From positions 1 through 64,000 of the IMG/VR virus record IMGVR_UViG_3300047369_000650: a stretch of DNA of 64,000 nt, one strand, 5' to 3'. Shown here in pieces: positions 16,284 to 18,849 of this stretch (its first letter is position 1; each line of letters begins with the position of its first letter). This stretch comes from a virus. Position numbers and translations under genes: made by a program. The notes under the pieces were generated by a model. That model saw nothing but the letters and a program-made list of their open reading frames with translations, was not told the DNA's origin and ran no database searches.

Positions 16284-16350
16284 AATGCATTTTAGGGGTT
16301 TACATTTCATTTAAAATATACTATATTAGTAGTATAAAGAGAATCGGAAG
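16284..16350 (+). promoter_or_regulatory. Early promoter with downstream GANTC element (copy 1)
   Basis: AATGCATTTTAGGGGTTTACA-N17-TATATT-N13-GAATCGGAAG. Confidence 0.8.
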
Positions 16351-16358
16351 GAACTAGA

Positions 16359-16514
16359 ATGAATGATCTTTTTGAAATTATTGAAGACCTTGAAATGATC
16401 GAAACTTTTGGTACAGACAGCCCGGGTTTTGAAGAAATCATTAACAAGTGGACAGAGCGCAAAGCAGAAGCTGAAGCATTCATGGAACGTCAGTATAAAA
16501 TGGAGTTAGTGTAA
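16359..16514 (+). CDS. 51 aa acidic early protein (not in ORF track)
   Basis: MNDLFEIIEDLEMIETFG...; directly behind promoter; stop overlaps next ATG. Confidence 0.65.
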   Translation: MNDLFEIIEDLEMIETFGTDSPGFEEIINKWTERKAEAEAFMERQYKMELV

Positions 16515-16747
16515 TGGAAAAGTACGATTTAGATGTAATTGTAAAAGGCAATAAACTTCCTCGTCATGGTTCACCTCAAGATCGTGGTGGTGCTGATGCT
16601 TACTACCATCGCCCTTATGATCCTCATTATTATGTCGGCGCTTCTATTACTTCAGAAAGAGTAGAAAAAGACAACATGACCGTTGGTGAGATTGAAGCTT
16701 ATAAGTATGGCTATGAAAATGAAGATGATAGAAAAGATTGGGGTTAA
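16514..16747 (+). CDS. Early hypothetical protein
   Basis: RHGSPQDRGGADAYY...RKDWG. Confidence 0.7.
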   Translation: MEKYDLDVIVKGNKLPRHGSPQDRGGADAYYHRPYDPHYYVGASITSERVEKDNMTVGEIEAYKYGYENEDDRKDWG

Positions 16748-16812
16748 TGCATTTTAGGGGTTTACAAGCTATTAAAAATATGCTATGTTAGTAATGTAAA
16801 AAGAATCGGAAA
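16746..16812 (+). promoter_or_regulatory. Early promoter with downstream GANTC element (copy 2)
   Basis: Same 21-mer AATGCATTTTAGGGGTTTACA-N17-TATGTT-N13-GAATCGGAAA. Confidence 0.8.
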
Positions 16813-16821
16813 GAATATAAA

Positions 16822-17124
16822 ATGACTATTGCTAAAACACAGAATGACCGTCTTGCTCTTATCAAAGAAATCGCAGAGCGTCGTAAAGCAGAAAAGAAAG
16901 CTGAACGTGCTCGTCAGATTAAAATGTATGAAATTAAAGAGAAAGCCAAAAAAGCTCGGTTTGCAATGTTACAAGCACGTAAGAAACGCGAAGACCCTCT
17001 TGCAACACTAAATGTAAAAGAAGGTGAAAATATTAATCAATATACCGATCAATCAAAGTATGCTAAAAAATATTATGGAGAAACTCTATATGAAACAACA
17101 AGATATGATAACGAATGGGATTAA
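16822..17124 (+). CDS. Basic helical early protein
   Basis: ORF behind promoter; Lys/Arg/Glu-rich. Confidence 0.7.
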   Translation: MTIAKTQNDRLALIKEIAERRKAEKKAERARQIKMYEIKEKAKKARFAMLQARKKREDPLATLNVKEGENINQYTDQSKYAKKYYGETLYETTRYDNEWD

Positions 17125-17129
17125 TAATT

Positions 17130-17326
17130 AAGAGTCTAAGACTCTTTTACTCAACGTCCGTGCAGAGAGAACCGGGCTTGAAAGCAACGTCTCACGAGAA
17201 TAATTCGCCTGTGAAATATCAGTGTCGTGAAAACGTGGAGATGCTAGTTTCAGTCAAATTAGAGCGGCAATGTCAATAAGGCCGTGCAAGGAGACTGGAG
17301 ATACTAGGGGTGTTGAGTAAAGGAGT
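17130..17326 (+). ncRNA. Structured cis-regulatory RNA candidate upstream of mazG
   Basis: 17141-17159 pairs without interruption with 17308-17326 (19 bp, 3 G-U); several internal helices; more GC-rich than flanks; no ORF. Confidence 0.7.
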
Positions 17327-17332
17327 TTTAAT

Positions 17333-17617
17333 ATGAAAGATAGTCCAATTAATAAACTTCAGCAGCTAATGATTATTACTGCAGAAGAATGTGGAGAACT
17401 TACTCAGAGATGTAGTAAGATTATTCGTAAATATAAAAAGTTTTCTGAAATAGAAGACGATCAAAAAAACAAACTTCTTGAAGAAGTTGGTGATGTTTAT
17501 TGTATGATTGATTTAATGTGTGAGCATAATGTATTAGATTGGAAACATATCTATGCTAGAAGCTCTGCTAAAAAAGAAAAACTTAAAAAGTGGAGTACTT
17601 TAATAGATGGTAAATGA
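17333..17617 (+). CDS. mazG: MazG-like nucleotide pyrophosphohydrolase
   Basis: ITAEECGEL...LLEEVGDV. Confidence 0.85.
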   Translation: MKDSPINKLQQLMIITAEECGELTQRCSKIIRKYKKFSEIEDDQKNKLLEEVGDVYCMIDLMCEHNVLDWKHIYARSSAKKEKLKKWSTLIDGK

Positions 17618-17897
17618 TATTAAAAAAATGACAGAAACTCTTGTGATTGATAAACTTAAAAATACATCAGAGGGTTGGATTGGAACAAGCGGAAGTATAA
17701 TTATTGATTTAGGCTTAGAAACATGCAATAATGAATTTGATGATTTTGTATTTCACGCTGTATCAAATATCTATCGTAATAATTTACTAAAGCCCTTTGG
17801 TAAAAAAATGGTAAAATTGGGTTATAAAAAAGAATATAGTCGAGGAAAAAATCGTCCTGGCAATCTCTTTAGAATTGAAAGTTGTATTGATGGATAA
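17607..17897 (+). CDS. Hypothetical protein
   Basis: ORF overlapping both neighbours. Confidence 0.5.
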   Translation: MVNDIKKMTETLVIDKLKNTSEGWIGTSGSIIIDLGLETCNNEFDDFVFHAVSNIYRNNLLKPFGKKMVKLGYKKEYSRGKNRPGNLFRIESCIDG

Positions 17898-18138
17898 ATT
17901 TAAAATACATAAAGCACATAAGATGTCTGAGTGGATTGAGAACCAAGTAACCGAATGGGCTTTAGAGTTAATTCAAAATCACTTTGGTGTAGACGGTCCT
18001 GAAGAATTATCACGCAATCAACTTGATGAAATTATTGTACAATGGGAAGAAATGCTAGAATATGATAAAACTTTAGCCTCGGGTCTTTATAACTGCATAA
18101 GCATTTGGGAAAATGATAGAGAGGAACACATTGTTTAA
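17890..18138 (+). CDS. Hypothetical protein
   Basis: ORF in operon (track start 17875). Confidence 0.6.
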   Translation: MDKFKIHKAHKMSEWIENQVTEWALELIQNHFGVDGPEELSRNQLDEIIVQWEEMLEYDKTLASGLYNCISIWENDREEHIV

Positions 18139-18790
18139 TCACGTTGACCATGGTTTAGTTTTACCTAAAATAGAAAGAAAAACCACTGAAGCTGGTCGTA
18201 AATACTTTACACCTGAAGGTAAGGCATATCCTTCTATTACCACAGTTTTAGGTGCTTTAAATAAGGATGGTCTCTTAGCATGGAGAAAGAAGGTTGGCGA
18301 AGAAGAAGCCAACAAAATATCTCGGCGTGCTGCTACTAGAGGAACTGCTGTACACAAATTAGCAGAAGATTATATTGATAATGTTCCCGAATGGAAAGAC
18401 GATGTAATGCCTCACAATCTATTTGCCTTTAATCATATTAAAGGTATTATAGATGAAAGATTAGATAACATTTGGTTTCAAGAAGAATTTTTATATAGTG
18501 ATCTATTAAAGACTGCAGGGCAAGTTGATTGCATTGCTGAATTTGATGGACAATTATCTATTGTAGATTTTAAGACATCTCGTAGAACAAAAAAGAAAGA
18601 ATGGATTACAAACTATTTTATCCAAGCGGCATTCTATGCTGCAGCATTCTATGAAAGAACTGGAATTCCTATTAAACAGGGTGTTATTATTATTACAGTA
18701 GATGATGCTGAACCTCAGGTTTTTAAAGTTAACACTCATGATTATCTTCCTGCATTTTTAGATGTAAGAAAAAAATATGAAAACAGTTAA
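18113..18790 (+). CDS. PD-(D/E)XK exonuclease
   Basis: YPSITTVL, RGTAVH, AGQVDC, IVDFKTS, Y.IQ...YA. Confidence 0.88.
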   Translation: MIERNTLFNHVDHGLVLPKIERKTTEAGRKYFTPEGKAYPSITTVLGALNKDGLLAWRKKVGEEEANKISRRAATRGTAVHKLAEDYIDNVPEWKDDVMPHNLFAFNHIKGIIDERLDNIWFQEEFLYSDLLKTAGQVDCIAEFDGQLSIVDFKTSRRTKKKEWITNYFIQAAFYAAAFYERTGIPIKQGVIIITVDDAEPQVFKVNTHDYLPAFLDVRKKYENS

Positions 18791-18797
18791 TTAACTG

Positions 18798-18849
18798 TTT
18801 ACTTTTGGCTCTATATGAGTTATTATAGTATTATGTAAAGAATCGGAAA
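18798..18849 (+). promoter_or_regulatory. Early promoter with downstream GANTC element (copy 3)
   Basis: TTTACT-N17-TATTAT-N13-GAATCGGAAA; preceded by perfect 20 bp palindrome 18781-18800. Confidence 0.75.

Follow-up and report, generated by a model that had tools for sequence, protein, structure and literature searches.

At Caulobacter promoters regulated by GcrA, the sites of this cofactor of the sigma70 RNA polymerase follow the word YGAKTCK and are either "narrowly centered around -20" or spread "from +2 to +30", and unmethylated sites are bound poorly (Haakonsen 2015, PMC4647560). Later work placed GAATC at -22 to -18 in the promoter PcsM and boxes centred at +4 and +12 in PmipZ, gave the downstream range as +5 to +30 and the word as YGAKTCG, and described a GcrA monomer that binds the DNA of the closed complex (Wu 2023, PMC9976885). 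Counted from the start site, the positions typical of GcrA boxes are -20 +/- 1, -30 +/- 2 and +5 to +30. Here we describe a comparable word in a virus, IMG/VR record IMGVR_UViG_3300047369_000650, of which positions 1-64000 make up the stretch analysed, called the window below; the full record has 177,535 bp and 34% G+C and is estimated to be 86% complete. Between positions 16284 and 18849 of the window, three early promoters carry GAATC at a fixed distance from the -10 box, within an 8-bp box, AGAATCGG, and the preliminary description of this DNA had proposed that such promoters may be activated by GcrA or read the methylation of GANTC, the site of the methylase CcrM.

The viral promoters resemble the GcrA/CcrM promoters of Caulobacter in having one GANTC box per promoter with YGAKTCK flanks, at about +10 in the main class or at -22 to -18 in a second class (type II, see below), in being of the sigma70 type, and in a host class that is probably right. 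They differ in being viral, in belonging to a phage that, like its relatives, has no methylase, in the fixed middle base of the box and the extra G that follows it, and in the near fusion of the box with the ribosome-binding site of a leader of ~25 nt. The second system of comparison is that of T4 early promoters and PeSL cassettes (Arbiol et al. 2010, PMC2839356), with which the viral promoters share a GTTTAC-type -35 box, a 17-bp spacer, a TAnnnT -10 box, repetition before small non-essential early genes at gene-replacement junctions and, in one copy, an upstream terminator hairpin. Unlike in PeSL, the conserved unit reaches into the leader, where it holds a separately selected 8-bp box, and most copies have no obvious stem-loop: a stem-loop terminator was called at cassette 1 only, and none at cassettes 2 and 3. 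Taken together, the parts of the cassette form an early promoter unit of the T4 type that is PeSL-like. Finally, phages of Alphaproteobacteria have promoters with CtrA boxes, and GcrA motifs gave no positional signal in the phage genomes analysed (Mascolo et al. 2022, PMC9437464). The promoters described here would likewise be wired to a cell-cycle regulator of the host, the regulator and the motif being different.

A conserved box in early promoter-leader cassettes

The four early promoters of this region (Table 1) were also called by an independent consensus scan. The -10 coordinates given for the first three and the starts of their GAATC (16341, 16803 and 18840, each 13 nt past the -10 box) proved exact, and the distance from the first base of GAATC to the ATG does vary (18, 19 and 17 nt, respectively). 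In the fourth promoter AGAATCG indeed lies 5 nt further out, GAATC following the -10 box after 18 nt instead of 13, and sits between the Shine-Dalgarno sequence and the ATG. The third promoter has a second TATTAT at 18829-18834 and lacks the upstream block shared by the cassettes. What had been taken for the invariant sequence, AGAATCGGAA, is identical at all three sites, but the conserved core is AGAATCGG and not AGAATCGGAA; the bases that end the longer word vary across the genome (GGAA, GGAG, GGAT, CGAA) and belong to the ribosome-binding site. As an exact 10-mer, AGAATCGGAA is expected ~0.14 times in the window from base composition and was seen three times, always in the same context, while the whole record contains five exact copies, all on the + strand, and no copy of the reversed control word.

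Scanning the whole genome with the pattern GTTTAC[A/T]-N17-TAnnnT yielded ~26 plausible intergenic promoters. GAATC occurs exactly 13 nt after the -10 box in ten of them (16298, 16760, 18797, 94544, 147743, 148086, 158312, 175034, 175457 and, on the minus strand, 125005) and is displaced in two more, to 21 nt (172082) and 18 nt (20437). The claim that the motif follows the -10 box and not the start codon is borne out by 10 of 12 copies and fails at the two displaced ones. The shorter word GAATCGG has 21 occurrences on the two strands together, where base composition predicts ~11; 11 copies, equal to the surplus, are sense-strand promoter leaders and the other 10 are intragenic. Every intergenic copy (11/11) is in the sense orientation and promoter-proximal, and none stands before an internal cistron. 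The genes behind the cassettes encode proteins of 51-100 aa without a family match. Given these counts and the shared context, the box is more than a chance occurrence; the observation is confirmed, and is stronger than first stated.

The cassette is ~75 bp long and consists of an upstream block ending in TTTAGGG, the -35 box GTTTACA, a variable 17-bp spacer, the -10 box TAT(A/G)TT, an initial transcribed stretch of 13 nt and AGAATCGG. The initial transcribed stretch exists in at least two versions, and both leader subfamilies carry the same box. Mean pairwise identity among the ten paralogs was 0.94 for the -35 heptamer, 0.45 for the 17-bp spacer, 0.86 for the -10 hexamer, 0.61 for the first 12 transcribed bases, 0.975 for the 8-bp box and 0.47 for the 10 nt that follow it. 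As the paralogs were chosen with GAATC as a condition, these five positions are uninformative; the three unconditioned positions of the box (A, G and G) are conserved in 10/10, 9/10 and 10/10 copies. Scans of IMG/VR for relatives, in which 71 and then 116 stretches were fetched, returned box-bearing contigs with 74-99% DNA identity to this genome, in which the box is kept. One variant in the clade has no GANTC (TAATC) and another reads GAATCAGG; in another relative the 10-mer is tandemly duplicated in front of the 147743 ortholog, and in a relative at ~80% identity the ortholog of promoter 4 has GATTC, one base closer, instead of AGAATCG. The same upstream context and cassette precede different genes in the relatives, which marks the cassettes as gene-replacement junctions, and several relatives have, in place of the 11269 promoter, a cassette that bears the box and is followed by another first gene. 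Since the spacer and the sequence after the box have diverged, the box has remained nearly unchanged and the relatives keep it, purifying selection acts on the box, on this comparison, within a single clade and more strongly than shared descent of the cassette would explain.

The position of the box next to the start codon calls for comparison with the ribosome-binding site, an unusual form of which had been offered as an alternative. In the 166 predicted genes, most GGAG words begin at -12 to -10 and most AGGA words at -13 to -10. By this measure only the GGA(G/A) tail qualifies as a Shine-Dalgarno sequence and AGAATC does not, and the box is absent at internal genes. In cassettes of the GGAG type, the last four bases of AGAATCGGAG are at the usual Shine-Dalgarno position, so that the tail of the box doubles as the Shine-Dalgarno sequence; in cassettes of the GGAAGGAAC type, this role belongs to the AAGGA that follows. 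At 158312 and in its ortholog the box is followed by T or TT and a separate AGGAG serves as the Shine-Dalgarno sequence, and in the lineage at ~80% identity the ortholog of the 18797 promoter has only 4 nt between the -10 box and GAATCGG, followed at 10 nt by AAGGAG. The 101593 leader, like its orthologs, appears to be this leader with precisely the 7-mer missing. The box is a discrete promoter-linked word, distinct from the ribosome-binding site; the earlier alternative was not upheld, as only the GG(A) tail of the box can overlap the Shine-Dalgarno sequence.

Table 1. Coordinates of the promoters and other features discussed in the text; positions are those of the window and, beyond 64000, of the whole genome record. 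SD, Shine-Dalgarno sequence; ORF, open reading frame.
Feature	Position	Strand	Description
Early promoter-leader cassette 1	16284-16361	+	upstream block ending TTTAGGG; -35 GTTTACA 16298-16304; -10 TATATT 16322-16327; box AGAATCGG 16340-16347; SD AAGGA just after; ATG 16359
Early promoter-leader cassette 2	16746-16824	+	-35 GTTTACA 16760-16766; -10 TATGTT 16784-16789; box AGAATCGG 16802-16809; ATG 16822
Early promoter 3	18797-18859	+	-35 GTTTACT 18797-18803; -10 TATTAT 18821-18826; box AGAATCGG 18839-18846; ATG 18857
Early promoter 4	20437-20497	+	-35 GTTTACA 20437-20443; -10 TATAAT 20461-20466; AGAATCG 20484-20490; ATG 20495
Terminator hairpin	16249-16270	+	9-bp stem with 5 G-C pairs, T-run; just upstream of cassette 1; stem-loop part of the PeSL-like unit
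Type II promoter	6500-6564	-	GTTTACA-N17-TATAAT and conserved ~33-nt leader; no ORF behind; no GAATC in spacer
Type II paralog	83649	-	outside the window
Type II paralog	128035	-	outside the window
Non-coding stretch	17130-17335	+	~190 nt; hairpin right after stop codon
Bmp/PnrA-like gene	137748-138803		ABC-transporter substrate-binding protein with signal peptide
TET-associated glycosyltransferase gene 1	145581-146516
TET-associated glycosyltransferase gene 2	149050-149889		downstream of two box-bearing cassettes
Transfer-messenger RNA	160143-160639		permuted, two-piece; tag ANDNFAPSGYALAA; small ORF between pieces

A proposed GcrA-type docking site and competing explanations

The single best-fitting mechanism, which we advance tentatively, is that the box may be a docking site of the GcrA type. 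The three sites are copies of a T4-type early promoter-leader of the PeSL kind before small early genes of unknown function, with AGAATCGG embedded and centred ~10 bp past the inferred start. There the box would offer, as double-stranded DNA, a docking site for a GcrA-type cofactor of the host sigma70 RNA polymerase. The cofactor would ride on sigma region 2, and its DNA-binding domain would touch GANTC in the still-closed promoter. Such contact would help the polymerase to bind and open the box promoters, whose -10 boxes (TATATT or TATGTT) depart more from consensus than the TATAAT of most promoters without the box in this genome. It would end when the polymerase draws the DNA downstream into its cleft, as has been described for PmipZ.

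The reverse strand of the box, CGATTCT, does fit YGAKTCK, as had been pointed out, and is one of eight words that do. The usual start of transcription from T4-type promoters is the seventh base past the -10 box. With the start so taken, GAATC (14-18 nt after the -10 box) falls at the inferred +8 to +12, which would lie within the downstream zone of GcrA boxes and match the placement in PmipZ. None of the ten box promoters has a TATAAT -10 box, which is found in 10 of the 16 promoters without a box at that position. Such -10 boxes would be in keeping with dependence on a factor that helps to open the promoter, but they may simply have come down with the cassette.

The second placement is provided by three type II promoters, in which GTTTACA-N17-TATAAT or -TATACT is followed by a conserved purine-rich leader of ~33 nt; two of them have no ORF behind, and their transcripts are candidate small RNAs. 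GAATC occupies positions 8-12 of the spacer (that is, -22 to -18) in two of the three genomic copies and in seven of eight unique variants from relatives, a position that matches that of the PcsM box. When IMG/VR was searched with GTTTACA-N7-GANTC-N5-TATAAT, 53 stretches were retrieved (31 unique, 24 unique from outside the clade), against 13 (11 unique) and 11 (11 unique) for controls with GANTC shifted two bases either way. In an unrelated family of orthologous promoters (IMG/VR loci L279, L281, L297, L311 and L312), GAATC, GATTC and GACTC all occur at -22 to -18, with GA.TC kept; a varying middle base is the pattern expected for a CcrM-type site. The excess of spacer GANTC is modest after related sequences are collapsed, and is supporting, not decisive.

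The host is probably an alphaproteobacterium, since the transfer-messenger RNA (tmRNA) of the phage is permuted and of the alpha type, with 98.6 bits to the alphaproteobacterial family RF01849. An exact 26-mer of this RNA had no match in 185,579 genomes. The tmRNA has its own GTTTACT promoter, which is without the box. The best host clue is the Bmp/PnrA-like gene, a putative host-derived auxiliary gene, whose product is 79% identical to a copy on a 1.0-Mb contig of Planktomarina (Rhodobacteraceae); its other matches are at 68-69% in three genomes (two labelled Alphaproteobacteria and one Legionellales) and at 65% in SAR116. Both genes are present in the Planktomarina genome: its CcrM-like methylase scores 628 bits against the CcrM model, and its GcrA homolog, in which the DNA-binding domain is nearly identical, matches Caulobacter GcrA with E = 1e-33. 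In a SAR116 genome only the methylase was found, and no GcrA; the Pelagibacter cluster has been reported to be without CcrM and GcrA (PMC2877005). A search of a protein atlas with the porin, aimed at the host, gave viral clusters only, plus one Pseudomonadota porin cluster. Restriction pressure of the HinfI type was considered and rejected, GANTC not being avoided in the genome (observed/expected 1.22). Two genes for TET-associated glycosyltransferases (TAGT) are present (Table 1), and searches of the record for TET/JBP and for a ThyA-type hydroxymethylase found neither; the TAGT genes hint at a possible DNA modification, which might block methylation.

What favours a GcrA-type site is the word, the two placements and the probable host class; what keeps it short of proof is that host, methylation and start sites are each inferred and that a methylase is missing from the phage. 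The GcrA/CcrM interpretation of the preliminary description is partly supported, by its word, inferred placement and probable host class, and finds no support in the gene content of the virus: neither a CcrM-type (N6_N4) methylase nor GcrA was found in the record of the phage, estimated as 86% complete, or in 12 related contigs. This absence heads a series of points that weigh against a GcrA-type site. Any N6-methyladenine in the box would depend on the host, and, as GcrA binds unmethylated sites poorly, the model needs a host CcrM to mark the phage DNA. The host itself is not firmly placed: a BLAST search of 401 alphaproteobacterial genomes with the tmRNA gave only short matches to the conserved core and no close donor, and the candidate labelled Legionellales, whose tmRNA is of the alpha type and comes closest to that of the phage in its pieces, yielded neither CcrM nor GcrA. 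As to the word, CGATTCT ends in T and not in G as in YGAKTCG (PMC9976885), and the downstream box has an invariant middle base and an extra conserved G. As to the placement, the cassettes are paralogs and owe their fixed 13-nt spacing in part to inheritance, and the spacing and the link with weak -10 boxes may have been inherited together. The fixed spacing is broken in relatives, where the 18797 promoter has GAATC 12 or 4 nt from the -10 box, and at 172082 the box stays beside the Shine-Dalgarno sequence and not 13 nt from the -10 box. In a sister lineage (~70% identity) the -35 and -10 boxes are the same, but the leader is another one and the box is absent. When the paralogs were collapsed into families, GANTC was not clearly enriched near promoters (~5 families against 3.3 expected). 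There is also a look-elsewhere effect, the readers of the sequence having been primed for GANTC.

Rather unlikely, in our estimate, is that the box serves as the operator of some other sequence-specific factor, most likely a phage early protein, which would bind AGAATCGG on the DNA just past the start or on the 5' end of the mRNA and so shut off one immediate-early class, as a counterpart of the early shut-off of T4. The 8-nt word is non-palindromic and keeps a constant orientation to transcription, its conserved G extends beyond the 7-bp GcrA word, and the box is confined to a subset of early promoters, those before small genes of unknown function; that the sister lineage lacks the box in spite of having the same core promoter is as would be expected of a lineage-specific factor. 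Positions +6 to +13, which the box would occupy, are moreover the classic position of a repressor acting as a roadblock. What such a factor leaves unexplained is GAATC at -22 to -18 in type II promoters and the agreement with the GcrA word and placement; nor was a candidate protein found in the phage, RegB being undetected and the expected targets of the RegA homolog being without the box.

We regard it as unlikely that the box acts in RNA, either as an extended or split Shine-Dalgarno sequence (AGAA and GGAG pairing with the alphaproteobacterial 16S tail CCUCCUUUCU) or as a standby or enhancer site for the 30S subunit or S1 on very short leaders. The box abuts or overlaps the Shine-Dalgarno sequence in 10 of 12 copies, at 172082 it is the spacing to the ATG that is kept, not that to the -10 box, and a duplex predicted with the 16S tail of candidate hosts pairs AGAA and GGAG around a small internal loop (-8.1 kcal/mol). 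The leaders are also unstructured, being no more folded than shuffled controls (z -0.3 to +1.8). Such a duplex, however, would put no constraint on the looped-out UC, which is nonetheless invariant, and the best pairing of GGAAGGA-type leaders ignores AGAA. The box never stands before internal genes, which use ordinary Shine-Dalgarno sequences, and leaders without the 7-mer have the same Shine-Dalgarno sequence. It persists where a separate Shine-Dalgarno sequence lies at least 10 nt downstream, and even 4 nt after the -10 box, where the start site would cut it. No complement of the box was found in the 16S rRNA of two candidate host genomes, nor is there an exact complement elsewhere in 16S beyond the tail.

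That the box is functionless, carried along in a cassette homogenised by PeSL-type recombinational shuffling and resembling a GcrA site by coincidence, is improbable. Such passive carriage agrees with the behaviour of PeSL cassettes in RB49 and phi1 (PMC2839356), with the cassettes marking gene-replacement junctions, with the promoter swap at 11269 in relatives, with the identical runs of 29-32 nt shared by members of a subfamily and with the tandem duplication of the 10-mer in one relative. Homogenisation would, however, also hold the spacer and the initial bases, which are at 45-61% against 97.5% for the box, and the box is common to subfamilies with differing leaders and recurs at other distances in unrelated leaders.

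Other known regulators and words were also considered and rejected: there is no RegB match in the phage (a search that control genomes cannot validate), the T4 RegA operator fails because, although a RegA homolog is present, the box is promoter-proximal only and stands neither at internal cistrons nor at regA itself, and the consensus words of LexA, IHF, DnaA and CtrA, together with the elemental pause consensus, were rejected by eye against the leader.

The virus and its relatives

Protein family matches (gp32, baseplate wedge and hub proteins, NrdA and a tape-measure-like protein) show the marine virus of this record to be a T4-like myovirus. The closest gp32 proteins are those of Phage C48C1 (57.6% identity), Methylophilales phage Melnitz (54.7%) and cyanomyophages (~52%), and megablast of the 16-21 kb part of the window against GenBank phages gave no close or near-identical relative. 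Phage C48C1 (OQ984149; 43.6% G+C) has a repeated promoter leader of its own, of different sequence, before two genes (14400 and 17120), and no GANTC box. Conserved leaders specific to each lineage seem to be common among these phages. Rfam searched with the whole window gave no match, and the window is without tRNA genes. A non-coding stretch between the gene of the 100-aa protein and a MazG-like gene, which likewise had no Rfam match, is listed in Table 1.

Significance for early transcription in marine T4-like phages

If taken one step further, a GcrA-type docking site would mean that a marine T4-like lineage with neither a methylase nor GcrA of its own recruits the GcrA-bound polymerase of its host through a box at about +10 of its immediate-early promoters, and that the start of infection reads the GANTC methylation of the incoming DNA and hence the cell-cycle stage of the host. 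We consider this a speculative possibility, and a somewhat doubtful one, suggested by the promoter sequences. If true, a downstream-type GcrA box would be seen for the first time outside Caulobacter, and for the first time in a virus, so that the downstream mode of GcrA would be in use beyond Caulobacter, and abundant marine phages would couple their first transcription to the epigenetic cell-cycle module of Alphaproteobacteria. Host physiology would then have a concrete and testable route by which to gate infection. Even with a reader other than GcrA, these T4-type early promoters are a clear example of a short regulatory word that is selected on its own within the initially transcribed region, and the box sets apart one subclass of immediate-early genes in a group of phages whose switch from early to middle expression is not understood.

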